Shown one piece after another: positions 16,998-40,173 of a stretch of DNA of 64,000 nt (position 1 is its first letter; every line of letters begins with the position of its first letter). The notes beneath the pieces were generated by a model that ran no database searches, was not told the DNA's origin, and saw only the letters and a program-made list of their open reading frames with translations. A program made the translations under genes and the position numbers. Location of the stretch: positions 41,527-105,526 of the forward strand of contig JADFDS010000044.1 of NCBI GenBank assembly GCA_018262715.1, given 5' to 3'. The DNA is from Bacteroidota bacterium. GTDB taxonomy: Bacteria; Bacteroidota; Bacteroidia; Bacteroidales; VadinHA17.

Positions 16998-18203
16998 TTA
17001 ATTAACAAATGTGATTGCCCTGCCGCTTGCCCCGGCTCTGCCCGTGCGGCCGATACGGTGAATGTAGCTTTCCATGTCTCTGGGTTGCTGGAAGTTAATT
17101 ACATGTGATACGTGAGAGATATCAAGCCCTCTCGCAGCCACGTCAGTTGCCACAAGCACCTTTATTTTCCTGTTCCTGAAAGATTCAAGGGCTTTAATCC
17201 TGTAATTCTGCGATTTGTCGCCGTGAATCTCATCGGCTGTTATGCCGCCTCTGCGGAGGTCTCGGCATATCCTGCTCACTCCACGCTTTGTTTCGGCAAA
17301 GACGAGCACCTTCTCAAAAGAGTCTTCACGCACCATTTCAAGGAGAATCTCAATTTTCCTTTCTCCATCCTTAACTGAGATGATATCCTGTTCTATATTG
17401 TCAGCGCTGATGTTGCCGGTACGGACCCTGACGACAAACGGGTTTTCCATCAGTCCGTCAATAATCTTTCGCTGGCTGCTGTCCTCCGTGGCTGAGAAAA
17501 GTATCGTCTGTTTCCGGCGGCCCATCCCTTCAACCAGTTTCTGGATCTCAGGGGCAAAGCCCATGTCGAGCAACCGGTCAAACTCATCCAGCACAAGTAC
17601 CGAAAACCTCCGCAGGTCGAGGGCTCCCTGCCGCACCATGTCGGCCAGCCGACCCGGCGTGCCAATGATTACATGGCCCGGTTTTCTCAGTTTTTCGATA
17701 TCGTGCCTGACGCTTGTGCCGCCAATGAGGCAGGTGCTGAAGAGCTTCAGGCCATGGGCAATGCTTCTGAACTCGGTGTCGGTCTGAAGTGCAAGCTCAC
17801 GTGTCGGAGAGATAACCAGAACATTGCCTGACGGGTCTTTTCTTATCAGATTATTAATTAAAGGTATAAGAAATGCTGCGGTCTTTCCTGTCCCTGTCTG
17901 AGCCAGGCCTATAAGGTTCCGGCCCTCCAGCAATGCTTCCAGGGTCTTGTCCTGAATCTCAGTGGGCACCTCGTAGCCCTTCTTTCTCAGGTTGCTGATG
18001 ATTGAACCTTCAACGGGGAGGTCAGTGATTAATCTTCCGGCCCTGTAGATAGTTTCATCTGCAGGAACAGCCTTCCTGACGAAGCTCTCGGGAGGGAGCT
18101 CCCCTGCGTTATGTTTTTTCCTGCTGTTGAAGTTTGCCGTTTCTTTTTTTCCCTTTTTGTAAGTCCTGTTTTTTGCAGATCGTCGATCTTTTTTGTATTC
18201 CAT
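16998..18203 (-). CDS. DEAD-box ATP-dependent RNA helicase (motif II reads DEFD)
   Basis: Q-motif region, motif I AQTGTGKTAAF, PTRELA, motif II VLVLDEFD, SAT, and motif VI HRIGRTGRAG. Confidence 0.9.
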   Translation of the reverse strand: MEYKKDRRSAKNRTYKKGKKETANFNSRKKHNAGELPPESFVRKAVPADETIYRAGRLITDLPVEGSIISNLRKKGYEVPTEIQDKTLEALLEGRNLIGLAQTGTGKTAAFLIPLINNLIRKDPSGNVLVISPTRELALQTDTEFRSIAHGLKLFSTCLIGGTSVRHDIEKLRKPGHVIIGTPGRLADMVRQGALDLRRFSVLVLDEFDRLLDMGFAPEIQKLVEGMGRRKQTILFSATEDSSQRKIIDGLMENPFVVRVRTGNISADNIEQDIISVKDGERKIEILLEMVREDSFEKVLVFAETKRGVSRICRDLRRGGITADEIHGDKSQNYRIKALESFRNRKIKVLVATDVAARGLDISHVSHVINFQQPRDMESYIHRIGRTGRAGASGRAITFVN

Positions 18204-19222: not shown

Positions 19223-19238
19223 TGGCATAACTTTTGAA
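19223..19238 (+). promoter_or_regulatory. Sigma54-like -24/-12 element (weaker copy): TGGCAT-N5-TTGAA
   Basis: TGGCATAACTTTTGAA lies 44 nt upstream of the ATG at 19282. It aligns with the near-consensus site at 37233, matching about 18 of 20 surrounding positions by eye. Confidence 0.35.
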
Positions 19239-19281: not shown

Positions 19282-20781
19282 ATGAAAAAGTTTTTCTGCA
19301 CTACGATCCTCACAGTCCTGATGGCTTCAGCGGCAATAGCCGGAAGGCAGGATTATCCTGAGGAGTACCTGGGTCTCCCGGGTGACAACCTGAACCTCTA
19401 CGCAGTCATGAATCTTTTCCAGGAGTCAGAGACTCTTGAGGCCTTTGAAAGAAGCCTTAACGAGGAGAACTCCAGGATCAACAACCTCGACCTGAACAAC
19501 GACGGTTATGTCGATTACCTTACCGTTTCCGATTTTGTCAGCGGCAATGTCCACACGATAGTCCTCCGTTCGGTTCTTGACCGTAACGAGTACCAGGACG
19601 TGGCAGTATTCACCGTTGAGCAGCTTCGCAACGGCGAGGTTCAGATACAGCTGATCGGCGACGAGGCTCTTTACGGAAGGAATTACATAGTTGAGCCTAA
19701 CTATGCTGAGACGCCCAATCCCGGTTACACCGGACGGACCGTCCAGAGGAACAATGTGACCGTGGTCACCACCACCTACTATGAGGTAGCAGCCTGGCCG
19801 GTGATCAGGTACATCTACAGTCCCCGCTACGTCATATGGCGCTCCAACTGGTACTGGGGTTACTACCCGGTCTACTGGCATCCCTGGAGGCCGTTCTTCT
19901 GGCACCACTACTACGGTTACCACTACCACTGGTATCCACACTACTACGCTCACTACCGTCACTGGCACCAGCCGAGGTGGAACCACTACCACGACTACTA
20001 CTACGGCAGCGTAAGAGCTTACTCACCCAATGTATCGCACCGCATCACTGCCGGTTCATACAAGCAGACCTACTCGAGGCCTGAAACAAGGAGAGACGGT
20101 GAAGCTCTTTACGCCAGCACGGCAGGAACACGCAGCAGGTCAGTCGGCAGTCAGGCAACAGCCGGAAGGAGGCAGTCTGAGACTGCAGCGGCAGCGCAGG
20201 ATCAGTCCCGCACACGCAGTGTCGGGACAACAGCCGGAAGGAGGCAGTCTGAGACTGCAGCGGCAGCGCAGGGCAGTGAGACACGCAGGTCGGCAACGAC
20301 CCAACCCGCAACCAGAACTCAGAGCAGCAGCAGCGGACGCAACAGCGCACCCGCAACCAGAACTCAGAGCAGCACCAGCAGAAGCAGCAGTGCTCCCGCA
20401 GCAAGAACTCAGAGCAGCACCAGCAGAAGCAGCAGTGCTCCCGCAGCAAGAACTCAGAGCAGCACCAGCGGACGCAGCAGTGCACCGGCAGCAAGGAGCC
20501 AGAGCAGCAGCAGCGGGCGCAGCAGCGCACCGGCAGCCAGGACCCAGAGCAGCAGCAGGAGCAGCAGCGTACCGGCAGCCAGGACTCAGAGCAGCAGCAG
20601 GAGCAGCAGCACACCGGCAGCAAGGACCCAGAGCAACAGCAGCGGACGCAGCAGCGGAACTGTCTCAAGCCGCAGCAGTAAAAGCAGCAGCAGAAGCAGC
20701 GGCACCCCTTCAAAGAGCAGCAGCAGAAGCAGCAGCTCATCAGGAAAATCAGACAACAGCAGCCGCTCATCCCGAAGATAA
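19282..20781 (+). CDS. Secreted protein: conserved N-domain with DxNxDG loop, Tyr/Trp/His-rich core and Ser/Arg/Thr/Ala-rich repeat tail (paralog of 37289..39121)
   Basis: Signal peptide MKKFFCTTILTVLMASAAIAG. The N-domain YPEEYLGLPGDNLNLYAVM...NNLDLNNDGYVDY...LIGDEALYGRNYIVEP is about 70% identical to the paralog by hand count. The aromatic block reads WYWGYYPVYWHPWRPFFWHHYYGYHYHWYPHYYAHYRHWH. I prefer the ATG at 19282 to the TTG at 19234. Confidence 0.7.
   Translation: MKKFFCTTILTVLMASAAIAGRQDYPEEYLGLPGDNLNLYAVMNLFQESETLEAFERSLNEENSRINNLDLNNDGYVDYLTVSDFVSGNVHTIVLRSVLDRNEYQDVAVFTVEQLRNGEVQIQLIGDEALYGRNYIVEPNYAETPNPGYTGRTVQRNNVTVVTTTYYEVAAWPVIRYIYSPRYVIWRSNWYWGYYPVYWHPWRPFFWHHYYGYHYHWYPHYYAHYRHWHQPRWNHYHDYYYGSVRAYSPNVSHRITAGSYKQTYSRPETRRDGEALYASTAGTRSRSVGSQATAGRRQSETAAAAQDQSRTRSVGTTAGRRQSETAAAAQGSETRRSATTQPATRTQSSSSGRNSAPATRTQSSTSRSSSAPAARTQSSTSRSSSAPAARTQSSTSGRSSAPAARSQSSSSGRSSAPAARTQSSSRSSSVPAARTQSSSRSSSTPAARTQSNSSGRSSGTVSSRSSKSSSRSSGTPSKSSSRSSSSSGKSDNSSRSSRR
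20171..20272 (+). repeat. Two in-frame copies of the intergenic palindromic repeat core, inside the CDS tail
   Basis: GGCAGTCTGAGACTGCAGCGGCAGCGCAGGATCAGTCCCG at 20171-20210, and GGCAGTCTGAGACTGCAGCGGCAGCGCAGG at 20243-20272. Both are translated as RRQSETAAAAQ. Confidence 0.85.
20290..20650 (+). repeat. Coding tandem repeat with a period of about 45 nt (units like STSRSSSAPAARTQS)
   Basis: agaactcagagcagcaccagcagaagcagcagtgctcccgcagca recurs at 20359, 20404 and 20449, followed by degenerate units. It creates long shadow ORFs in other frames. Confidence 0.8.
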
Positions 20782-20948: not shown

Positions 20949-21626
20949 TCAATTATGAATTGACGGATATAATCTGTGTAATTTCACTCTGGCATCTGTG
21001 GTTGTAAACTGCCATTTTATTCTTGAGTCCTTATTATTCCGGTTACTTTGCCAGGCTTTGACCTCAGTCTTAATCGTTTGTAAATCCTCAATTCTTCTGT
21101 TCAGGCATTGCTTTGTTAGTACATTGAGCTCAATCTCAGCCATATTCAGCCAGCTACCATGTTTAGGTGTAAAAATAAACTCAAGGCGATCCCATATCCT
21201 CTTTGCCTCCTCGGGTTCAAACGTCTCATATAATGCGGCAGCACTGTGTGATGACAGATTATCCATAACCAGTGTGATAACCTCTGCGTCAGGGTATAAC
21301 TTATCGCATATGTATTTTACCAATAATGCCCAATCTTTCTTGGTCCTTTGGTTGGTGACCTTTGTGAAGCGCTTTCCTGCCAGTGGTTCATTTATCATGA
21401 AAACATTGCATACACCACAACGTGAATATTCATAATCAACCCTTTCTTCAAAGCCTGGCTTGGGAGGCAATGCTCTGCGAACCTCTTTTATCAGCTGTTT
21501 TGGCGTTTCATCCATACACACTACCGGCCTTGATTTGTTGTATGGGCGTTTGTAAACATCCAGAACCTGCTCCATCGCTGCCACAAAGTGACTGTTTTCT
21601 TGGGGAGGAATCACCCATCCCTTCAC
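20949..21626 (-). CDS. IS630 transposase, DDE catalytic part (orfB; likely expressed as an orfAB fusion)
   Basis: WVIPP, VVCMDETP, LVMDNLSSHS and FTPKHGSWLNMAEIE are the DDE motifs typical of the IS630/Tc1 superfamily. Confidence 0.85.
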   Translation of the reverse strand: MKGWVIPPQENSHFVAAMEQVLDVYKRPYNKSRPVVCMDETPKQLIKEVRRALPPKPGFEERVDYEYSRCGVCNVFMINEPLAGKRFTKVTNQRTKKDWALLVKYICDKLYPDAEVITLVMDNLSSHSAAALYETFEPEEAKRIWDRLEFIFTPKHGSWLNMAEIELNVLTKQCLNRRIEDLQTIKTEVKAWQSNRNNKDSRIKWQFTTTDARVKLHRLYPSIHN

Positions 21627-22084
21627 TCTCCAAGGCTTAAGTTCGTTTTTTTTAGAACCTTTCTTACAGTCTCATGCGAAATGACATCAACATATTCCAA
21701 CTCTACCATACGGTCTGCAAGTAATCTTAATGACCATCGGGCATAACCCTTTGGTGGTTTACCGCAAGCAATCGCTATTAAATGAGCCTCAGCTTCTCCG
21801 TCTACTCTCTTTCGATATACCCTGCTTGTTGGGGCAATGTCCAGTGCGGCATCAAGTCCTTCAAGAACAAACCGCTTCTTTACCCGGTCTATCGTTCTCA
21901 TGCCGATCTTGAGAACTTTGCAGATCTCTTCATTGGTTTGCTGATCTTCAGAGTACTTACCTTCATCAACATTAAGCAGGATTAGTGAATGAATAACTTT
22001 CTTGGCAGTATGACTGCCTTTTCTGGTTATCTCTTTCAATTGTTCTCTCTCTTCCTGGGTAAGGGTTACTTTGTACTTTATCAT
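21623..22084 (-). CDS. IS630 transposase, N-terminal HTH part (orfA)
   Basis: 153 aa with helix-turn-helix segments. It ends at ...VLKKTNLSLGE just after an A8 run. Confidence 0.85.
   Translation of the reverse strand: MIKYKVTLTQEEREQLKEITRKGSHTAKKVIHSLILLNVDEGKYSEDQQTNEEICKVLKIGMRTIDRVKKRFVLEGLDAALDIAPTSRVYRKRVDGEAEAHLIAIACGKPPKGYARWSLRLLADRMVELEYVDVISHETVRKVLKKTNLSLGE
21646..21653 (-). promoter_or_regulatory. Putative -1 programmed ribosomal frameshift site (A AAA AAA)
   Basis: Frame 0 reads CTA AAA AAA ACG (LKKT...stop). The -1 frame continues AAC GAA CTT AAG CCT TGG = NELKPW RVKGWVIPP, restoring the canonical IS630 KKNELKPW junction. Confidence 0.6.
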
Positions 22085-31417: not shown

Positions 31418-32620
31418 ATGACTTTTGACGAGCTTGATCTGGACCCCGAAATTCTTGATGCAATTGACTACATGGGATTCAGGGAGACCACCCCTATACA
31501 GGAGAAGGCGATCCCGGTGATCCTTGAAGGGCATGATCTTATTGCCTGTGCACAGACAGGCACCGGGAAGACGGCTGCTTACCTCCTGCCTGTGATGAAT
31601 GACATTGCATATCACCGGCCTGCACATACCCACACCCTTATACTTGTTCCGACACGTGAGCTGGCCCTTCAGATTGACCAGCAGATACAGGGTCTGGCAT
31701 ACACGCTTAATATTACCTCACTTGCCGTTTACGGAGGAGGCGAGGGTAGTGCCTGGGACCAGGAGAAAGCTGCGCTGACACACGGGGCTGACATTATTGT
31801 GGCGACTCCGGGAAGGCTTATATCACATCTCAACCTCGGTTATGTACAATTCACGGAGTTGCAGGTGCTTGTGCTTGACGAAGCAGACAGGATGCTTGAC
31901 ATAGGTTTCCATGATGACATCATGAAGATCATTTCCTTCCTTCCGAAAAAGCGTCAGACACTGATGTTCAGCGCCACAATGCCGCCAAAAATAAGGTCGC
32001 TTTCCAAACATATAATGAAGAACCCGGAGGAGATCTCCCTGGAGATGTCGAAGCCGGCCGAGGGGGTGCTCCAGGCTGTTTACCTGCTTGAGGAGCCGCA
32101 GAAACTCCCCCTGCTCAACAGCCTCCTGGCGGACAAGCCCGAATACCACAGCATCCTCATCTTCAGCTCAACAAAGAAGAAGGTGCATGAGATTGTCAGG
32201 GGGCTCCGCTCACGTGACTACACTGTGGAAGGCATCTCATCAGACCTTGAACAGAAGGAACGTGAGGAGACTCTGCTGCGGTTCCGCTCCAGGCGGACGC
32301 GTGTACTGGTTGCCACCGATGTGCTGAGCCGGGGTATCGATATAAAGGACATCAACCTGGTTGTCAATTTCGACGCACCCTCAGACGCGGAGGACTATGT
32401 GCACCGTGTGGGCCGTACGGCTCGTGCTGACACCACAGGGGTGGCAATAACCCTGGTAACCAGGGCTGACCTGTTCAAGCTCCAGAGAATTGAAAAACTG
32501 ATCGGTTACCAGGTGTTCCGTGCACCGCTGCCCGACTTCATCTCTTCAGGTCACGGTGACACTGCGGGCCATCGCCCGTCGCGTCCCCGCTCCGGGAACA
32601 GGAAATTCAGGCGCCGCTGA
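31418..32620 (+). CDS. DEAD-box ATP-dependent RNA helicase (RhlE-like)
   Basis: MTFDELDLDPEILDAI, TPIQ, AQTGTGKTAAY, PTRELA, VLVLDEAD, SAT and HRVGRTARA, with a basic C-tail. I prefer the ATG at 31418. Confidence 0.9.
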   Translation: MTFDELDLDPEILDAIDYMGFRETTPIQEKAIPVILEGHDLIACAQTGTGKTAAYLLPVMNDIAYHRPAHTHTLILVPTRELALQIDQQIQGLAYTLNITSLAVYGGGEGSAWDQEKAALTHGADIIVATPGRLISHLNLGYVQFTELQVLVLDEADRMLDIGFHDDIMKIISFLPKKRQTLMFSATMPPKIRSLSKHIMKNPEEISLEMSKPAEGVLQAVYLLEEPQKLPLLNSLLADKPEYHSILIFSSTKKKVHEIVRGLRSRDYTVEGISSDLEQKEREETLLRFRSRRTRVLVATDVLSRGIDIKDINLVVNFDAPSDAEDYVHRVGRTARADTTGVAITLVTRADLFKLQRIEKLIGYQVFRAPLPDFISSGHGDTAGHRPSRPRSGNRKFRRR

Positions 32621-32735: not shown

Positions 32736-34247
32736 ATGACATCAGACGAAAAAACAATGATCATTATCGGCGGAGGCTTTGCCGGCCTCGCCGCAGGTAT
32801 TTACGGACGCCTCAACGGCTATAAAACAGAGATCTACGAGATGCACAGTCAGCCGGGCGGACTGTGTACAGCATGGAAGAGAAACGGCTACACCTTCGAC
32901 GCCTGCATTCACTGGCTGGTGGGCTCCTCGCCTGAGAGCAACATGAATAGCATGTGGATCGAGACAGGTATCGCACCAGGAAGGAAATTCGTTTACGCCG
33001 GCGAATACTACCGCGCCGAGGGGGCTGACGGGAGAACAATTATCTTCCATGCTGATCCTGACAGGCTTGAGAAGCATCTCCTTGAGGCTGCCCCTCAGGA
33101 TAAGGAAACCATAAAGGATTTCATCGCAGGGATAAGAATGTGTTCTGCATTTGACTTCCCTTCCGAAAAAGAACCGTTCCTGACACGGATCAGGAAACAT
33201 GTCAAAACCTTCTTTACGTTCATGAAGTACGGAAAAGAGTTCCGCAGGTGGACCGGCATTACCGGTGAGGAGTTTGCTTCGCGCTTCAGCGATCCCCTCC
33301 TGAAGCAGGCATTCCGCGAGATATGGATCCCGGAATTCTCGATGGTCTTCCTCTTTTTCACTTTCGCTTACCTAAGCAAGCGCAACGCCGGGTACCCGAT
33401 AGGCGGGTCAATGCCAATGTCGGAAGCCCTTGAAAAACGATACAGGGACCTTGGCGGAGTGATACACTATAATAAAAGGGTGGCGAGGATACTCACCACT
33501 GACGGCCGGGCTACCGGAATAAGGCTCGTTGACGGCACCGAGGCAAGTGCCGGCAGGGTCATCTCTGCAGCTGACGGGCATGCCACACTGTTTGATATGC
33601 TTGACGGAAAGTTCCTTGATGACAAGATAAGGGAGCAATATGATACATGGCCGGTGTTTCATTCACTCCTGTTCGTTTCGCTTGGAATAAAAAGGAAGTT
33701 TGATGATATGCCGGTCAGTGTCTCCGGATTCTCCTTCCCGCTGAATGAGCCGGTAATGGTTGCAGACAGGATGAGAGACAGGCTTCCTGTGCATATCTAT
33801 AACCAGGATCCGACCATGGCTCCTGACGGGAAGACATCAGTGATAATAATGCTGGAATCAGACTACGCATACTGGAAGAAACTGGCCGAAGACCGGAATA
33901 TCTATGTTCAGAAGAAGGATGAGGTGGCCGGGCTGATAATCAGGCTGCTCGGGCAGCGATTCCCGGGGATCGGGGACCAGGTGGAGGTTACCGATGTAGC
34001 AACTCCGCTTACGTTCGAGAGCTTCACCGGAAACTGGAAGGGTTCATTCGAGGGATGGCTCATCACCCCGAAGAATGCTTACACGATGATGAAGCCGATG
34101 CCTCAGACAGTGCCGGGGCTGCGAAATTTCTACATGTGCGGCCAGTGGGTTGAACCGGGAGGCGGGCTGCCCACCGCCATCATGTCAGCCCGGAGGCTTA
34201 TCAGGCAGATCTGCAGGGAAGACGGCAGGAAATTCAAGACTGAATAA
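32736..34247 (+). CDS. FAD/NAD(P)-dependent oxidoreductase, phytoene-desaturase (CrtI/CrtD)-like
   Basis: Dinucleotide-binding motif IIIGGGFAGLAAGIY...E at the N-terminus, 503 aa, and a C-terminal FYMCGQWVEPGGGLPTA motif. Confidence 0.75.
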   Translation: MTSDEKTMIIIGGGFAGLAAGIYGRLNGYKTEIYEMHSQPGGLCTAWKRNGYTFDACIHWLVGSSPESNMNSMWIETGIAPGRKFVYAGEYYRAEGADGRTIIFHADPDRLEKHLLEAAPQDKETIKDFIAGIRMCSAFDFPSEKEPFLTRIRKHVKTFFTFMKYGKEFRRWTGITGEEFASRFSDPLLKQAFREIWIPEFSMVFLFFTFAYLSKRNAGYPIGGSMPMSEALEKRYRDLGGVIHYNKRVARILTTDGRATGIRLVDGTEASAGRVISAADGHATLFDMLDGKFLDDKIREQYDTWPVFHSLLFVSLGIKRKFDDMPVSVSGFSFPLNEPVMVADRMRDRLPVHIYNQDPTMAPDGKTSVIIMLESDYAYWKKLAEDRNIYVQKKDEVAGLIIRLLGQRFPGIGDQVEVTDVATPLTFESFTGNWKGSFEGWLITPKNAYTMMKPMPQTVPGLRNFYMCGQWVEPGGGLPTAIMSARRLIRQICREDGRKFKTE

Positions 34248-34339
34248 TCCCGGCCGACAGCTGCCGGCATTCGCTATGGGCGCTATGAAGCCCCGGCAAA
34301 AGCAATCGCCATAGTCATTTGCGAAGTGATCACCAAAAA

Positions 34340-34378
34340 TATATTTGCATTTGTACAATAAAATATTGTATTTTTACA
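34340..34378 (+). promoter_or_regulatory. Candidate Bacteroidota promoter (-7 TAnnTTTG) with overlapping inverted repeats (possible PadR operator)
   Basis: TATATTTG at 34340-34347. Inverted repeats TACAATA-AAA-TATTGTA at 34354-34370 and TGTA-N4-TACA at 34367-34378. The region is AT-rich and lies 30-65 nt upstream of the padR-like ATG. Confidence 0.35.
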
Positions 34379-34406
34379 TTATATAAACATCTTATATATT
34401 ATCAAT

Positions 34407-34751
34407 ATGCTTCAAACTGATCTTATCAAAGGTTCTCTCCGGACAATCGTTCTCAAGCTGCTGAAGGAAAACGGCCGCATGTATGGGTATGAGATAACCC
34501 GCAGGGTTGAGGAACTCACCTCCGGAAAAATCAAGCTTACGTACGGTGCACTTTATCCCGTGCTCCATAAGCTCGAAAGTGAGGGAGTACTGGTCACGGA
34601 GGCAGAAAATTTCAACAACCGCATCCGGATCTATTACAGCCTGACGGAGATAGGCCATTCACTGGTCAGTGAAAAGGTCAGGGAACTGATGGAGTTCATA
34701 GAATCTCTCCAGGGCATTGTTAACCCGAAGACTGGTCCGAGCTATGCCTGA
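34407..34751 (+). CDS. PadR-family transcriptional regulator
   Basis: 114 aa. GSLRTIVLKLLKENGRMYGYEITRRVEELTSGKIKLTYGALYPVLHKLESEGVL is the canonical PadR winged HTH. Confidence 0.9.
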   Translation: MLQTDLIKGSLRTIVLKLLKENGRMYGYEITRRVEELTSGKIKLTYGALYPVLHKLESEGVLVTEAENFNNRIRIYYSLTEIGHSLVSEKVRELMEFIESLQGIVNPKTGPSYA

Positions 34752-36186
34752 GCTGACTTTCAGTGATATTGATTGCATCAGGCAGGATGTGATTCGTCAG
34801 GAAATCTGCTATTCGCACCTTGCTGACGAGCTCATCGATCATCTCTGCTGCGATGTGGAGAATGAGATGGCCGGTGGTCTCAGCTTCCGCGACGCATACA
34901 GGAAGGTGAAGGAATCACTTGGGCACCGCAGGCTCAGGGAGATACAGGAAGAAACTCTTTATGCTGTAGACACCAAATACAGGAATATGAAAAACACAAT
35001 GAAAATTTCAGCAATAACCGGTACCATAATGATCGGTTTTGCTGCCCTGTTCAAGATCATGCACTGGCCCGGCGCCGGTATCATGCTTACCCTCGGCAGC
35101 CTTTTACTGGCTTTTGTCTTCATGCCATCGGCACTGACGGTTCTCTGGAAAGAGACACACAGCGGGAAGAAACTCTTCCTGTATATATCGGCATTCATCA
35201 CCGCAATGCTCTTAATAATAGGTGTAACCGCAAAGGTACAGCACTGGCCGATGGCCGGACTGATCCTGGCTGTTGCATCACTGTCAGGGACCCTTGCCTT
35301 TGTCCCTGCCCTGCTCTCTGCAAAACTGAAGGATCAGGAAAACAGGTCGAAAAAGATAGTCTATATCTTAGGTGCTGCAGGCTTGATCTGTTCCATCATG
35401 GGATTGCTCTGCAAGATTCAGCACTGGCCACTGGCAACCATACTTCTGACATTCGGGACTGCAGTCATATTCTTCGCAGTATTTCCATTGTACACCTGGA
35501 TGACCTGGAGGGAAGAAAAAAACGTCAGCGCCAGATTCATTTTCATGATAGTCGGCCTGATAGGTCTGATGTTGCCGGTTTTAATGCTCAACCTCAGCCT
35601 GCAAAGGACTTTTGAGGCAGGTTACTACATACATCATGAAGAACAACAGGCTCTGTTTGATTACAGGTTCAGGTCAAATCAGTCATTGATCAGTCACTGC
35701 AATGACTCCTCTGCTTTACCAATCCTTAAGGAGCTAAATGACAGGACCGTTGAACTGATATCAGTCATCAACAATACCGAAGCCAGGCTCATTGCCGAAG
35801 CTGAAGGAAAACCCGGGGTGCCGGCAATACTGACCAATCAGATGGCAAAAACTGAGACCGGACCTGTAATACAGTTCAAGGCGATAAAGCAGCCGTTCCA
35901 TACTGCTCCTTTCAGGAACTTCCTGATGAAGGATTCAGGCCTGCGGAATGAACTTGCCGCTGCCCTGAAGAAATACTCTGATTATCTGTCGGGTCAGTTG
36001 CCTGCAGATAAGTTTGAAATGTACGCGAAGCTTCTTGAACCTTCCGTTTACCTGCAGGAGGTAAATCCTGAAACCGACAGGATCCCGCTGATAACCGGAC
36101 TGCATATGTTGGAACTGCTGAAAAACAGCATCCTTGCTGCAGAGGCATATGCAATTGAAACGGTTTCGGGAACTAATAACCAATAA
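34744..36186 (+). CDS. Membrane protein: HAAS-like cytoplasmic head, three GldL-like TM hairpins, and a TM plus GldM-N-like periplasmic domain
   Basis: The ATG overlaps the padR stop (ATGCCTGA). The head reads LADELIDHLCCDVENEMAGGLSFRDAYRKVKESLG. The hairpins carry LFKIMHWPGAG, AKVQHWPMAG and CKIQHWPLAT. The last TM ends ...LMLNLSLQ, and the C-terminus reads PLITGLHMLELLKNSILAAEAYA. Confidence 0.6.
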   Translation: MPELTFSDIDCIRQDVIRQEICYSHLADELIDHLCCDVENEMAGGLSFRDAYRKVKESLGHRRLREIQEETLYAVDTKYRNMKNTMKISAITGTIMIGFAALFKIMHWPGAGIMLTLGSLLLAFVFMPSALTVLWKETHSGKKLFLYISAFITAMLLIIGVTAKVQHWPMAGLILAVASLSGTLAFVPALLSAKLKDQENRSKKIVYILGAAGLICSIMGLLCKIQHWPLATILLTFGTAVIFFAVFPLYTWMTWREEKNVSARFIFMIVGLIGLMLPVLMLNLSLQRTFEAGYYIHHEEQQALFDYRFRSNQSLISHCNDSSALPILKELNDRTVELISVINNTEARLIAEAEGKPGVPAILTNQMAKTETGPVIQFKAIKQPFHTAPFRNFLMKDSGLRNELAAALKKYSDYLSGQLPADKFEMYAKLLEPSVYLQEVNPETDRIPLITGLHMLELLKNSILAAEAYAIETVSGTNNQ

Positions 36187-36197
36187 AACTTAAGGAT

Positions 36198-37136
36198 ATG
36201 AAACAGAAGATATATACCCTGGGGCTTATCATTACGTCGGTAATCTTTCTTGGTGCTCTGCTTAAGATAAATCACTGGCCCGGCGGAGGGCATCTTTTGA
36301 CTCTTGGTATTGTCACGCTCGCCGTGGTATTCCTTCCGCTGGCTTTGAGAAATCATTACAGGACTGAAGGCGGGAGAAAGAATCTGCTGCTTTACATTGT
36401 AACATGGGTCACATGTTTAGTTATGTTCGGTGGTATGCTTTTCAAGCTGATGCACTGGCCGGGAGCGGGAAAAGCCCTGCTGATAGCCCTCCCCTTCCCG
36501 TATGTTGTTTTCCTCCCGGTTTTTCTTGCTGTGACATCAAAGGATAAGAATTTCAGCATTCATAATACTGTTGCTGTACTTTTCCTTCTTGCAGGCACGT
36601 CAATCTCCTCTGCATTGCTGTCGCTCAATGTTTCGAAGGAGAGGCTTGATGACAGCATGCGGTTGTCGCGGAGTTATAACAGGATTGAGGCGGTACTTGA
36701 TGAGATCCCTTCTGCTGCGGGTCACACAACGGCTATAAACAATATAGATGAACTTCTGGGCATTATTGATGACTATCAGCGCAGAATATTCTCCATTGAG
36801 GGTATGTCGGAGGAAGACTGGAATAATGATCCATGGACATTCCCGTTCCCGGAAAAAACATCTATCGCAGATAAAACCCTGTTCATCGGAGGGAAGGATC
36901 CCACTTATGACACAAGGCTACAGACCGGGCTGGGAGAACTCGCCGGCGAACTTCAGAAGTCTGCCGCCAATGAAGAGATTGCCGGCAAAATACCATTAAT
37001 CCTTGGCTTCTATGAGACGCCCGGTGACAACCTGGGGTGGACGCAGGGTATGTTTGTTGTAAATCCCCGCGTGTGGTCACTTATTTATCTTGACGGCCTG
37101 GAAACAAATCTGAAGCTGATCAGGGCAGGAATCTGA
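36198..37136 (+). CDS. Membrane protein: two GldL-like TM hairpins, and a TM plus GldM-N-like periplasmic domain
   Basis: LLKINHWPGGG and LFKLMHWPGAG hairpins. The third module reads ...SSALLSLNVSKERLDDS (compare GldM ...MNVSKEV...). The C-terminus reads VWSLIYLDGLETNLKLIRAG. Confidence 0.6.
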   Translation: MKQKIYTLGLIITSVIFLGALLKINHWPGGGHLLTLGIVTLAVVFLPLALRNHYRTEGGRKNLLLYIVTWVTCLVMFGGMLFKLMHWPGAGKALLIALPFPYVVFLPVFLAVTSKDKNFSIHNTVAVLFLLAGTSISSALLSLNVSKERLDDSMRLSRSYNRIEAVLDEIPSAAGHTTAINNIDELLGIIDDYQRRIFSIEGMSEEDWNNDPWTFPFPEKTSIADKTLFIGGKDPTYDTRLQTGLGELAGELQKSAANEEIAGKIPLILGFYETPGDNLGWTQGMFVVNPRVWSLIYLDGLETNLKLIRAGI

Positions 37137-37232
37137 CCTTGTGAATAAAAGCCATCTTCCGGATCTGAAGATATCATACATCTTACAAAATACATCCTGA
37201 CAGCCTCATCCCATGAGGGTTTGCGGAGGTTT

Positions 37233-37248
37233 TGGCACACCCTTTGCA
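37233..37248 (+). promoter_or_regulatory. Near-consensus sigma54 (RpoN) -24/-12 promoter: TGGCAC-N5-TTGCA
   Basis: TGGCACACCCTTTGCA has GG and GC at canonical spacing. It lies 41 nt upstream of the ATG at 37289. The paralogous gene carries a related element at the same distance. Confidence 0.55.
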
Positions 37249-37288
37249 TTACCTCCATTGAAGAGCGATCTTCATAAAACGTAAAAAG

Positions 37289-39121
37289 ATGAAAAAGTCA
37301 GTTATCACATCGGTCCTCGCAGTTCTGGCAGCCTTAACGACGACAGTCGGGGCACAGAACTACCCGAAGGAATACCTGGGTCTCCCCGGTGACAACCTCA
37401 ACCTCTACGCGGTCATGGACCTGTTCCGTAATGCTCCCACCCTTGAAGCTTTCGAGAGAAGCCTCAACGAGCAGGACTCACGGATCAACAACCTCGACCT
37501 CAACGGTGACTGGAGGGTTGACTACATTGCCGTATCGGACTACCGCGACGGCAGGGTGCACAACATCGTGCTCCGTGCGGTGCTCGGGCGCAACGAGTAC
37601 CAGGATGTGGCGGTGATAGTGGTGGAAAGGATGAAGAAGAAGAGGGTTGTGATACAGATAATCGGCGACGAGCTCCTCTACGGGAGGAACTACATAATAG
37701 AACCGGTCTACGCCAAAAAGCACAGGATCAGGCACGAGTACGGCCCGGTCTACTACGGAGGCGCGACGATATACAACAACTACTACTACGACATGTGGGA
37801 CTGGCCGGTGGTTGTCCACATCTACAGTCCTTACTACGACGGATGGAGCTCATCATGGTACTGGGGTTACTACCCCACCTGGTATGAGCCCTGGAGCCCC
37901 TGGTACTGGGACTACTACTACGGATACCACTCCGGGTGGCACAGCCACTACCACAGCTACTATCACCACAGTGACCGCTACAGGTACCAAAGGTACAATG
38001 ACTACTACTACCACAGTGTAAGGCAGGAGTCGCCCCAGGTACAGCGCAGGGTAGCTGAAGGCAACTACAGGCAGACCTACTCACGCCCCGAGCAGAGGGC
38101 TGAAGGGATGGATCTGCAGCGCAGGACCCGCGAAGCGATAACTGAAGGCACCCGCAGCCAGGCTCCGGCGAACGCCGGCACAAGGCGGCAGGCAACCCCT
38201 CAGGCAGTGAGCGGAACGGTTCCTTCTGAGGGCAGGAGGACCGCCGCAGGCACCGAAGGACGACGTGCAGCGGAGACTGAAGCAACCAGAAGGGCTTCCA
38301 CCGAGACTGTCAGCAGGAATGCTGAGGAGAACGGACAGACCAGAAGAGCCGGCACCGGCACCGTCAGCAGGGAAGCTGCCGGGAACGACGCCACCAGGAG
38401 GAGCACCACCGGCACGGTAAGCAGGGAAGCAGCCACCACTGAGGAAGCAAGAAGGGCTCCTGCAACGTTAAGCAGGACCGATCAGAACAGTGAGCACAAC
38501 GCGCAGACAGGTGAGACGGTCAGAAGGACTGCTGCCTCTGCCCCGGTAACGGTGAAGAGCGCTGAAAGCGAGGCCGCAGAGGCACGCGAAGCTCAGGCAC
38601 GCGAAGCTCAGGCCCGTGAGGTACAGGCCCGTGAGAATGAGAGAAGGGCAGCTGAAGCCAGGGAAGCACAGCAGCGCGCCGCAGAGCAGAGGGCAGCTGA
38701 AGCCAGGGCCGAGCAGCAGAGGATGAGCGAACAGCGTGCCGCAGAGGCCCGCGAAGCTCAGGCCCGTGAGGTACAGGCCCGTGAGAATGAGAGAAGGGCA
38801 TCTGAAGCCAGGGAAGCACAGCAGCGTGCCGCAGAGCAGAGGGCAGCTGAAGCCAGGGCCGAGCAGCAGAGGGTGAGCGAGCAGCGTGCCGCAGAGGCCC
38901 GCGAAGCTCAGGCCCGCGAGGTACAGGCCCGTGAGAATGAGAGAAGGGCATCTGAAGCCAGGGAAGCACAGCAGCGTGCTGCAGAGCAGAGAGCTGCAGA
39001 ATCACGCGAGAATGAAAGAAGAGCCGCCGAAGCCCGTGAAAACGAAAGAAGAGCCGCCGAGAACAGAGCCGCCCAGCAGAGAACACTGGAATCAGGTTCC
39101 GACAGAATCAGCCGCAAATAA
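37289..39121 (+). CDS. Secreted protein: conserved N-domain, Tyr/Trp/His-rich core and Glu/Arg/Ala/Gln-rich 50-aa repeat tail (paralog of 19282..20781)
   Basis: Signal peptide MKKSVITSVLAVLAALTTTVGAQ. The N-domain reads YPKEYLGLPGDNLNLYAVM...NNLDLNGDWRVDY...IIGDELLYGRNYIIEP. The aromatic block reads WYWGYYPTWYEPWSPWYWDYYYGYHSGWHSHYHSYYHH. The tail contains (AEAREAQAREVQARENERRASEAREAQQRAAEQRAAEARAEQQRVSEQRA)n. Confidence 0.75.
   Translation: MKKSVITSVLAVLAALTTTVGAQNYPKEYLGLPGDNLNLYAVMDLFRNAPTLEAFERSLNEQDSRINNLDLNGDWRVDYIAVSDYRDGRVHNIVLRAVLGRNEYQDVAVIVVERMKKKRVVIQIIGDELLYGRNYIIEPVYAKKHRIRHEYGPVYYGGATIYNNYYYDMWDWPVVVHIYSPYYDGWSSSWYWGYYPTWYEPWSPWYWDYYYGYHSGWHSHYHSYYHHSDRYRYQRYNDYYYHSVRQESPQVQRRVAEGNYRQTYSRPEQRAEGMDLQRRTREAITEGTRSQAPANAGTRRQATPQAVSGTVPSEGRRTAAGTEGRRAAETEATRRASTETVSRNAEENGQTRRAGTGTVSREAAGNDATRRSTTGTVSREAATTEEARRAPATLSRTDQNSEHNAQTGETVRRTAASAPVTVKSAESEAAEAREAQAREAQAREVQARENERRAAEAREAQQRAAEQRAAEARAEQQRMSEQRAAEAREAQAREVQARENERRASEAREAQQRAAEQRAAEARAEQQRVSEQRAAEAREAQAREVQARENERRASEAREAQQRAAEQRAAESRENERRAAEARENERRAAENRAAQQRTLESGSDRISRK
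38573..39075 (+). repeat. Coding tandem repeat, period 150 nt, about 3 copies plus degenerate ends
   Basis: gcagaggcccgcgaagctcaggcccg... recurs at 38741 and 38891, exactly 150 nt apart. An earlier variant copy starts at about 38575. Confidence 0.85.
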
Positions 39122-39141
39122 AACTTAACTGACTGTTCAAT

Positions 39142-39178
39142 AGTCCCGCTGACCACCAGATCAGCGGGACTTTATTAT
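39142..39178 (+). terminator. Rho-independent terminator
   Basis: Stem AGTCCCGCTGA / TCAGCGGGACT (11 bp) with an 8-nt loop, followed by TTTATTATT. Confidence 0.8.
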
Positions 39179-39243
39179 TCTATCCCGGACTTGCCGGAAC
39201 ATATCAACATTATAATTGTTCTATATTCGTTAAAAAAACAACA

Positions 39244-40173
39244 ATGCAGACAATTCTCGGCGCTAACGGTACCATAGGAAAGATCCTTGCAAAAGAACTT
39301 CCCGTGTACACTGACAGGATACGGCTTGTAAGCCGGAACCCGATCAGGGTGAACGAAACTGATGAACTGATGCCCCTTGATCTGACGCAACCGGGAGCTG
39401 TCGATAAAGCCGTGCAAGGCTCCGAGGTCGTATACCTTGTAGTGGGCCTTGAATACAAGTTGAGGGTATGGGAACAATACTGGCCGACCCTGATGAGAGA
39501 TACAATCAATGCATGTCTCAAATATGGGGCAAAACTGGTGTTCTTTGACAATGTCTATATGTACGATAAGAACCACATGTCACAGCTTTCCGAGAACACC
39601 CCGGTCAACCCGCCCAGCCGCAAGGGTGCAGTCAGAAAATGGATTTCCGAAATGCTTCTGGAAGCGGTAAAGGATATGGGTCTGCAGGGGCTGATAGCCC
39701 GTTCGGCCGACTTTTACGGTCCTGCCACTGAAAACAATTTCGTGACCCAGATGGTTCTGAAGAACCTTTCTGACGGTAAGAAGCCGATGTGGTTTGTGGG
39801 ATCTGACATCAGGCACTCCTTCACCTACACCCCTGACGCAGGCAAGGCGACAGCCCTGCTTGGCAATACGCACGACGCCTACGGCCAGGTCTGGCACCTT
39901 CCTACTGACAGCAGGCCTGTCACAGGCAAACAGTTCATATCAATGATTGCCACCGAATTGGGTACCACAGCACCAAAACTCACCATACTTCCCAAATGGA
40001 TGCTCCGCCCGCTGGGCCTGTTCATCCCCGTGATGAAAGAGATGCCGGAGATGATGTACCAGTACGACAGGGAATACTTCTTCGACTCATCTAAATTCAC
40101 CGGCCGGTTCGGTACAAAGGCCACTCCCTACGAGGAAGGAATCAGGGCAACCTGTCAGGCTTACAGGCACTGA
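39244..40173 (+). CDS. NAD(P)-binding SDR-family protein (epimerase/dehydratase-like, atypical)
   Basis: The N-terminal ILGANGTIGKIL matches GxxGxxG; 309 aa. Confidence 0.75.
   Translation: MQTILGANGTIGKILAKELPVYTDRIRLVSRNPIRVNETDELMPLDLTQPGAVDKAVQGSEVVYLVVGLEYKLRVWEQYWPTLMRDTINACLKYGAKLVFFDNVYMYDKNHMSQLSENTPVNPPSRKGAVRKWISEMLLEAVKDMGLQGLIARSADFYGPATENNFVTQMVLKNLSDGKKPMWFVGSDIRHSFTYTPDAGKATALLGNTHDAYGQVWHLPTDSRPVTGKQFISMIATELGTTAPKLTILPKWMLRPLGLFIPVMKEMPEMMYQYDREYFFDSSKFTGRFGTKATPYEEGIRATCQAYRH

Follow-up and report, generated by a model that had tools for sequence, protein, structure and literature searches.

What kind of system is encoded by the block of four co-directional open reading frames at positions 34,340 to 39,178 of a 64,000-nucleotide stretch of a Bacteroidota bacterium (assembly GCA_018262715.1, contig JADFDS010000044.1), and do the four genes belong together? 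The whole stretch of 64,000 nucleotides is called the window throughout the paper. The genes are termed padR, G2, G3 and g4 in their order on the + strand, on which all four of them lie. An earlier note on this DNA, made from the letters alone, had proposed one module consisting of a PadR regulator, two membrane proteins related to HAAS, GldL and GldM, and a secreted repeat protein. The four open reading frames were found where this proposal had placed them. The conserved core of the locus is a three-gene cassette of padR, G2 and G3. Its two membrane proteins are built from GldL- and GldM-type parts, while g4 is best treated as a separate, sigma-54-driven unit, a lineage-specific neighbour outside the conserved cassette.

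First, the composition of the two membrane proteins has to be described. G2 (34744-36186, + strand) encodes a protein of 480 amino acid residues with seven transmembrane helices, and G3 (36198-37136, + strand) one of 312 residues with five. The G2 protein consists of a cytoplasmic helical head with the motif SHLxDELIDHxCCDxE (residues 1-86, nucleotides 34744-35001), three GldL-type hairpins (nucleotides 35005-35154, 35164-35328 and 35335-35517) and a GldM-type transmembrane helix followed by a periplasmic D1-like domain (35530-36183). G3 is composed of two GldL-type hairpins (36207-36353 and 36384-36533) and a GldM-type transmembrane helix carrying LSLNVSKE, again with a D1-like periplasmic domain (36555-37133). 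Using the Pfam profile hidden Markov models, GldL_N was found above its gathering score in three stretches of G2 (E=5e-16) and in two stretches of G3 (E=1e-15), so that the proposed GldL relationship of both proteins was borne out. Every one of these stretches forms a two-helix hairpin with an FKxxHWP motif, and the KxxH part, the equivalent of Lys27 and His30 of GldL, is kept in all five. The spacing of the motif is exactly 60 residues (K104, K164 and K224 in G2, K23 and K83 in G3), and these positions were unchanged even in the most distant relatives. The hairpins are linked by loops of 8-12 residues. As these loops are rich in Lys and Arg, the positive-inside rule puts all of them and the head on the cytoplasmic side, with both D1-like domains facing the periplasm.

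The window proteins alone, searched against Pfam and NCBIfam, gave matches to GldL_N and PadR and no GldM or HAAS match. Relatives were therefore collected for family searches. A phmmer search against 1.84 billion representatives yielded 1406 relatives, 176 of them at E<=1e-30, and 67 diverse full-length relatives with 24-51% identity were aligned with the window protein as the first row. GldL_N was found in 67 of these 67 proteins, Pfam GldM_1st in 54 (best E=1.9e-24) and the NCBIfam GldM model TIGR03517 in 48. Using the profile of this alignment against the PDB, the GldM/PorM chains 7SAU_A (E=8.5e-23), 7SAT_A (9e-21) and 6YS8_A (6e-13) were matched with positions 273-477, i.e., with the GldM transmembrane helix plus D1, and the GldL chains 7SAU_C and 7SAT_C with E=1e-5. 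An AlphaFold2 (AF2) model of G2 (mean predicted local distance difference test, pLDDT, of 76.7) consisted of seven long hydrophobic helices with a helical domain after them, and its best fold match in the PDB was the N-terminal part of PorM (6EY0; probability 1.0, target TM-score 0.63). For G3, the Pfam scan of 48 orthologues gave no GldM_1st match, and one distant G3-type orthologue has a recorded Pfam GldM_1st hit. The C-terminal halves of G3 and G2 were aligned by hhalign with a probability of 98% (E=1.8e-12) over 189 columns. Thus, G3 is the second membrane protein of related architecture that had been proposed, and the GldM-like character of the C-terminal halves was confirmed.

In the known GldLM and PorLM structures of the proton-driven motor for type IX secretion (T9SS) and gliding (6YS8, 7SAT, 7SAU, 7SAX, 7SAZ; PorM 6EY0), five GldL hairpins surround two GldM helices. 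Taken together, G2 and G3 amount to five hairpins of the GldL type plus two helix/D1 units of the GldM type, matching GldL5GldM2, and the 3+2 split of the hairpins was invariant across the family. Consequently, a 1:1 heterodimer would reproduce the parts list of the motor. The likeness includes the homologous hairpin with its FKxxH(W)P motif, the GldM transmembrane helix with its LALNVSKE motif, and the periplasmic helical domain D1. In contrast to the motor, the parts are joined in just two polypeptides (3+1 and 2+1), G2 carries an extra head, PadR is coupled upstream and the genes do not lie in a gldK/L/M/N operon. A salt bridge between Glu49 of GldL and Arg9 of GldM is functionally important for the motor and conserved across the phylum. 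The equivalent of Glu49 was indexed as the His of the hairpin motif plus 15 residues, with GldL of 7SAU and PorL of 7SAT as controls, both of which gave Glu at this position. Leu, Gly and Leu/Ile were found there in hairpins 1-3 of G2, and Leu and Pro in the two hairpins of G3. No Asp or Glu was present in the transmembrane helices of 74 G2 and 70 G3 orthologues. The residue equivalent to Arg9 was Phe or Tyr in G2 and Phe, Tyr, Thr, Ser or Ala in G3. Furthermore, the "axle" helices are joined to the "ring" hairpins by loops of ~10 residues. The model for full-length GldL, TIGR03513, reached 42.8 and 43.4 bits (cutoff 68.3), with model positions ~6-51 as the only part matched; the cytoplasmic C-terminal domain of GldL is absent from G2 and G3. 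The GldM domains D2-D4 are absent as well, both proteins ending straight after D1. With a tethered axle, no GldL cytoplasmic domain and an end after D1, neither free rotation nor spanning of the periplasm is to be expected. The homology is real, but the hallmarks of a GldLM motor that works are missing from G2 and G3, and the motor-like complex of the earlier note was not upheld.

How constant is this arrangement? A scan of 185,579 species-representative genomes identified 269 confirmed loci, and 80 species-level genomes were kept. The genes padR, G2 and G3 were adjacent and co-directional in 84 of 84 loci from the genome scan and in 5 additional distant loci (89 in all), down to 24% identity. 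The stop of padR is overlapped by the start of G2 within ATGCCTGA, 8 nucleotides at 34744-34751, an overlap already recognised in the earlier note and kept in 71 of the 73 fully resolved loci. G3 always followed G2, mostly at a distance of 4-24 nucleotides (11 in the window). At 24-32% identity the lengths of the proteins and the positions of the hairpins were unchanged while the flanking genes were wholly different, which marks the trio as an old, tightly linked three-gene unit. The implied unity of four genes did not survive this neighbourhood survey, in which padR, G2 and G3 were the only ones to co-occur universally.

The first gene, padR (34407-34751, + strand), encodes a single-domain PadR-type winged-helix regulator of 114 residues. 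The identity assigned to it before proved correct, with a match to Pfam PadR PF03551 at E=4e-18 and 65.6 bits (gathering score 27) for residues 15-86; the best NCBIfam match was TIGR03433, padR_acidobact, at E=4e-17 and below its cutoff. The conserved DNA before the gene (34340..34406, + strand) is a putative promoter/operator region. Comparing 34 aligned loci, ~55 nucleotides before padR were found conserved, with a consensus including AATATTnTATATTTGCAATATATAAGnAACTTATATAT, although the proteins of the compared loci are only ~50% identical. Promoter-like motifs were found at 34340-34353 (TATATTTG/TTTG) and at 34369-34376 (TAnnTTT-like). TTTG and TAnnTTTG resemble promoter elements of the Bacteroidota type. 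The AT-rich promoter and inverted-repeat region described earlier is thus real, and its dyad has a 9-3-9 layout, TTATATAAA-CAT-CTTATATAT at 34379-34399. The family consensus is ATATATAAG-N3-CTTATATAT, with which the left arm of the window agrees at 7 of 9 positions. The core of the dyad, ATAAR-N3-YTTAW, was found 22-27 nucleotides before the padR start codon in 41 of 72 loci, compared to a background of 0.1 per kb. From its conservation and position, the dyad is likely the operator of PadR, a candidate site that would imply autoregulation of padR as shown in Listeria for LltR, a PadR-family repressor of its own operon, in which a DUF1700 membrane protein and an exoprotein are also encoded (PMC6624303).

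The link between PadR and the membrane part would be the G2 head. No part of G2 is better conserved than these first ~86 residues, and their motif is kept far better than the periplasmic domain. The head of the window protein carries the highly conserved D-E-L-x-D-H...G-x-S-F-x-x-A motif in the form of ADELIDHLCCDVENEMAGGLSFRDAY, and the motif of the family reads SHLxD(E/D)L(I/V)DHxCC(D/E)xE...G..F..A(Y/F)...G...(I/V)Q(E)xT...Y(R)xMK. The earlier note had taken this head for a HAAS/DUF1700 sensor domain. HAAS domains are three-helix modules with a GxP kink which are always found beside a standalone PadR, and they stand N-terminal to a variety of multi-transmembrane sensors, FtsX permeases as well as uncharacterised 6TM domains among them (PMC11237479). 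The genomic context of the G2 head agrees with this description, as padR adjoins G2 in the 84 genome-scan and 5 distant loci and the head precedes a multi-transmembrane part. The AF2 model of the head gave helices at residues 6-18, 26-43 and 48-58 followed by a helix continuing into the first transmembrane helix, so that a three-helix domain, cytoplasmic by the positive-inside topology, was found here as well. Compared to the described HAAS-PadR systems (Ravi et al., 2024, PMC11237479; Listeria LltR-Lmo0600(DUF1700)-Lmo0601 and LstR-Lmo0421, PMC6624303), the cassette shares a short standalone PadR directly before a membrane protein, an N-terminal cytoplasmic helical domain before a multi-transmembrane sensor, apparent autoregulation and a further envelope protein downstream. 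In these terms, the membrane-gated switch of the PadR/HAAS type that had been proposed is in keeping with the genomic context.

Searching curated families, permease prefix domain 1 (perm_prefix_1, NF038403) matched residues 25-61 of the window protein at E=0.017 and 15 bits (cutoff 30), and it was found in 13 of the 67 relatives at E<=1 (best 3e-6). Going by the ADOP example cited in PMC11237479, perm_prefix_1 may be equated with HAAS. It is the only sequence bridge of the head, leads to the PadR-linked FtsX permeases and agrees with padR_acidobact as the best match of PadR. The pairs of PadR (TIGR03433) and ADOP-type FtsX permeases with a permease prefix domain 1, best known from Acidobacteria, resemble the cassette in having PadR beside a prefix-bearing membrane protein, with both of these family matches below the curated cutoffs. 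They differ in an FtsX/MacB-like instead of a GldL/GldM-like membrane domain, and the cassette belongs to the phylum Bacteroidota. Within the head, His33 and Glu39 were invariant and a Cys-Cys pair was present in at least 90% of the members. This near-invariant DH-x-CC-(D/E)-x-E motif with its vicinal Cys pair (34840-34862, G2 residues 33-39), accompanied by a conserved His25, could be a metal- or redox-sensitive site and is not a described trait of HAAS or perm_prefix domains.

We read padR-G2-G3 as an autoregulated, one-component-style switch of the PadR/HAAS type, with a pseudo-5:2 scaffold of G2 and G3 as its sensor, and consider this reading to have about even chances of being right. PadR would bind the conserved 9-3-9 dyad overlapping its own promoter and thereby repress transcription. 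Owing to the 8-nucleotide overlap of stop and start, PadR would be made in fixed proportion with its putative binding partner G2, whose cytoplasmic head would serve as the PadR-interacting module, related to the "permease prefix" of the PadR-linked FtsX permeases. In the inner membrane, G2 and G3 may assemble 1:1, so that the two GldM-type helices would be enclosed by a ring of ten helices from the 3+2 GldL-type hairpins and the D1-like domains would pair in the periplasm. Such a scaffold could act as a conformational transducer. A cue from the periplasm or the membrane would displace the helices and the paired D1 domains, this shift would reach the head, PadR would be sequestered or released, and transcription of the operon, possibly also of other targets, would change. 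More tentatively, and with somewhat less confidence, we propose that the assembly is a covalently "locked" pseudo-5:2 complex of the GldLM type which has lost ion coupling, i.e., a rotary motor turned into a transmembrane switch whose head gates PadR.

Several points weigh against this reading. The single-chain AF2 model of G2 had a predicted template modelling score (pTM) of 0.46. The 1:1 complex with a ring of five around two axle helices is deduced from the arithmetic of the parts, and we infer likewise the geometry of the heterodimer, the binding of PadR to the head, the function of the operator and the signal. Concerning the head, none of 42 heads matched Pfam DUF1700, DUF1129 or DUF1048 at E<=10, and the head profile gave no match at E<=10 to the DUF1048 structure 2O3L in the PDB. 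A weak match of the head profile to GLD-1 in the PDB search was rejected as chance. The GxP kink motif was absent from the G2 heads, in which a near-invariant G60 is followed by xR, xG or similar and never by a conserved Pro. The head thus differs from the known HAAS domains in its family matches, in the missing kink and in its own near-invariant DHxCC[DE]xE. Moreover, a sensor module derived from GldL and GldM is not among the fusions listed for HAAS domains (PMC11237479). Consequently, from the earlier assignment the motif, the PadR context and a sub-threshold perm_prefix_1 relationship stood, and membership of DUF1700 did not; the G2 head appears HAAS-like by context and weakly so by sequence. 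Finally, all 80 kept carriers of the cassette are uncultured Bacteroidales/Bacteroidia metagenome-assembled genomes (MAGs). Cluster look-up and profile search for a cultured host gave metagenome or MAG sources only, which limits immediate testing.

Among the other explanations, it is conceivable, though unlikely in our view, that PadR itself senses a small molecule of the phenolic or membrane-active kind, with G2 and G3 as stress-protective membrane products and the head as an anchor or chaperone-like part. Classical PadR regulators bind their ligands directly, and the autoregulatory dyad would fit equally well. In Listeria, PadR operons encode membrane proteins whose overproduction gives a phenotype (PMC6624303). 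However, the near-universal translational coupling argues for a specific partnership of PadR and the head, to which the published co-migration of HAAS and PadR also points (PMC11237479). The conservation of the head motif far beyond that of the periplasmic domain speaks for the same partnership, and the 114-residue PadR was found without an extra C-terminal ligand-binding domain in the Pfam scan.

Less probable again is a function in T9SS, by which G2 and G3 would act as a modulator or decoy of the true PorL/PorM (GldL/GldM) motor, tuning or reporting T9SS assembly, and PadR would couple this to transcription. Both motor subunits are true homologues, the D1 dimerisation domain included, which together with the KxxH motif in all five hairpins would be in line with such a role, and at least one carrier encodes a T9SS-sorted protein (Por_Secre_tail) beside the cassette. 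Against it, GldK, GldN or the gldK, gldL, gldM, gldN and por genes were found among the neighbours of the cassette in none of the inspected loci, and the exact 3+2 arithmetic suggests a self-contained complex.

The relation of g4 to the proposed padR-G2-G3 switch was approached via its family. The gene (37289-39121, + strand) starts 152 nucleotides after G3 and encodes a secreted protein of 610 residues with a signal peptide (residues 1-22), a block rich in Tyr, Trp, His and Pro (about residues 160-245) and a tail of a 50-residue E/R/A/Q repeat. The repeat unit of 150 nucleotides is present in 2.6 copies with 97% identity at 38595-38991, which indicates recent expansion. The secretion, the aromatic block and the charged repeat tail had been read from the letters before. 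The charge alternation of the tail resembles single-alpha-helix spacers of the ER/K type. No family was matched by g4 in Pfam and NCBIfam. The AF2 model of its N-terminal 270 residues had a core pLDDT of 80-90 and no significant fold match in the PDB. The g4 family is large and multi-copy in Bacteroidales MAGs, its members consisting of a signal peptide, a conserved beta-rich N-domain, the Tyr/Trp/His/Pro-rich block and a variable low-complexity tail.

Upstream of g4, the near-consensus RpoN promoter of the earlier note was found as a sigma-54 -24/-12 element at 37233-37248 (+ strand), TGGCACACCCTTTGCA, an exact TGGCAC-N5-TTGCA and the only exact match within the 64-kb window. Allowing one mismatch, 6 matches were found in the window versus 2.5 expected, so that the single site alone is not statistically compelling. 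Comparison changed the picture. In 33 of 33 g4-family genes of related loci with enough upstream sequence, TGGCA[CT]-N5-TT[GT][CA] was present 56-58 nucleotides before the start codon, approximately half of these promoters having the TTGA variant at -12, and an element at such a fixed distance strongly supports the RpoN assignment. A stem-loop in the 5'-leader, TGAAGA-GCGA-TCTTCA at 37259-37274 (+ strand), lies near the predicted transcript start. Its GAAGA/TCTTC arms were invariant in 34 of 34 family members, the loop varying in sequence and length (4-6 nucleotides), and a conserved AAAACTTAAAGAG-ATG follows the stem in the family. The fold energy was -6.6 kcal/mol (z=-2.35). Invariant arms with a variable loop fit an RNA hairpin better than a protein operator of fixed spacing; the element may be a 5'-terminal mRNA hairpin or a regulator site common to this regulon. 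No Rfam match was obtained for this stem-loop or anywhere else within 34000-39400.

With these data, a single four-gene system, in which PadR, G2 and G3 control or act with the sigma-54-promoted g4, appears improbable. A g4-family gene was found within 8 kb of the cassette in ~27 of 84 loci, always on the same strand and in several arrangements, i.e., directly downstream, directly upstream, both, or farther away. No terminator was predicted between G3 and g4, and the Listeria lltR operon also ends with an exoprotein gene (PMC6624303). However, all of these ~27 loci have a G2 identity of at least ~52%, and below this value, as in the distant relatives, no g4 was found within 8 kb, leaving about two thirds of the loci without g4 beside the cassette. 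The family has several copies per genome, another one lying 15 kb away in the window, and each copy has its own sigma-54 promoter and leader, near the cassette or not. As the DEAD-box helicase and the oxidoreductase are likewise kept as neighbours in the g4-bearing subclade, the linkage seems to be local synteny passed on by descent and not a functional requirement. The inclusion of g4 in the system was therefore not sustained.

A working ion-driven 5:2 motor or stator that would power some process of the envelope, perhaps the export or handling of the repeat protein, is the least probable, since the acidic transmembrane residues and the Glu49 and Arg9 equivalents are gone from all orthologues, ring and axle are covalently chained, the D1-only proteins do not span the periplasm and most loci have no g4 nearby, whatever the 5:2 parts list, the GldLM homology and the secreted neighbour in the clade of the window may suggest.

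Returning to the PadR/HAAS-type switch, which of its features are new? Complexes in which five ring subunits surround two axle subunits (MotAB, ExbBD, TolQR, GldLM, ZorAB) form a recently recognised ion-driven class. The cassette shares with MotAB, ExbBD, TolQR and ZorAB the general idea of an inner-membrane ring and axle coupled to an envelope-facing domain. Those systems are ion-driven, are made of separate subunits, keep a membrane-embedded acidic residue and have no sequence relationship to the cassette. None of the four proteins matched a defence system in PADLOC. Members of the protein family are named "hypothetical" or "GldL-related protein" in the databases, or misleadingly DMT permease, PQ-loop or flippase. 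Within the library searched, no paper was found to link GldL or GldM to PadR or to describe GldL/GldM fusion proteins. PadR, HAAS-type partners, the GldL and GldM folds and RpoN promoters are already known; the fused, de-energised, PadR-coupled module of 5:2 proportion is new as far as these searches show. A GldLM-type motor appears to be written into two chains in 5:2 proportion, with the charge-relay residues gone and a transcription factor connected to it.

Should the assembly be real, it would illustrate how the scaffold of a rotary motor can become domesticated as a sensor, which, if true, would be a previously undescribed evolutionary route from a molecular motor to a signal transducer and a new input module of HAAS-PadR systems. 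Such an assembly would also offer a natural "single-copy", pseudo-symmetric 5:2 complex useful for structural and mechanistic work on rings and axles, and a defined, abundant example for the still untested HAAS-PadR signalling model. In any case, a concrete architecture is now given to a family that at least 269 Bacteroidales genomes of species level encode. In addition, a multi-copy family of secreted, aromatic-rich proteins is defined as a sigma-54 regulon, its genes sharing a conserved leader hairpin.

The surroundings of the cassette gave some additional observations. The gene block is closed by the strong intrinsic terminator that had been predicted (39142..39180, + strand), with an 11-bp stem containing 7 G-C pairs, an 8-nucleotide loop and then TTATTATT, the hairpin and T-run occupying 39142-39171. 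The flanking genes are of the housekeeping type, a DEAD-box helicase and a flavin adenine dinucleotide (FAD) oxidoreductase upstream and a nicotinamide adenine dinucleotide (NAD) epimerase downstream. An orthologue of the DEAD-box RNA helicase (31418-32620 in the window; 79-97% identity) was found within 8 kb of the cassette in 29 of 84 loci, all of one subclade and in varying positions. The Listeria PadR/DUF1700 operon lltR has a cold-growth phenotype (PMC6624303). By analogy with this phenotype and from the helicase neighbour, a link of the cassette to cold adaptation is conceivable.

Concerning activators of the g4 promoters, no open reading frame with the GAFTGA motif was found in the 64-kb window. 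An exact GAFTGA search of the loci found 1 locus and was too strict, since it missed the activators of loci L002 and L003 that Pfam detected. In these two loci, a histidine kinase and a response regulator of the sigma-54-activator type are encoded on the strand opposite to the cassette, two genes upstream of it (209-2998 in L002, 896-3766 in L003), and in a contig shared with locus L022 a g4-family gene lies just past such a pair. The kinase and sigma-54-activator pair is a candidate activator of the g4 regulon.

The second g4-family copy of the window (19282-20781, + strand, start codon at 19282) encodes 499 residues with a signal peptide, N-domain and aromatic block like those of g4 and a tail of repeats rich in Ser, Thr and Arg. 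Before it lie a variant sigma-54-like element, TGGCATAACTTTTGA at 19223, and the GAAGAG...CTTC leader hairpin. A further DEAD-box helicase is encoded just upstream on the opposite strand (16998-18203). Straight after this copy, two adjacent open reading frames (20949-22084, - strand) resemble an IS630/Tc1-type transposase, one its helix-turn-helix and the other its DDE part, possibly joined by a frameshift. In related loci, among them L025, L051, L066 and L069, the pair of this helicase and the second g4 copy was contiguous with the padR cassette; an insertion or rearrangement may have separated the pair from the cassette in the window.

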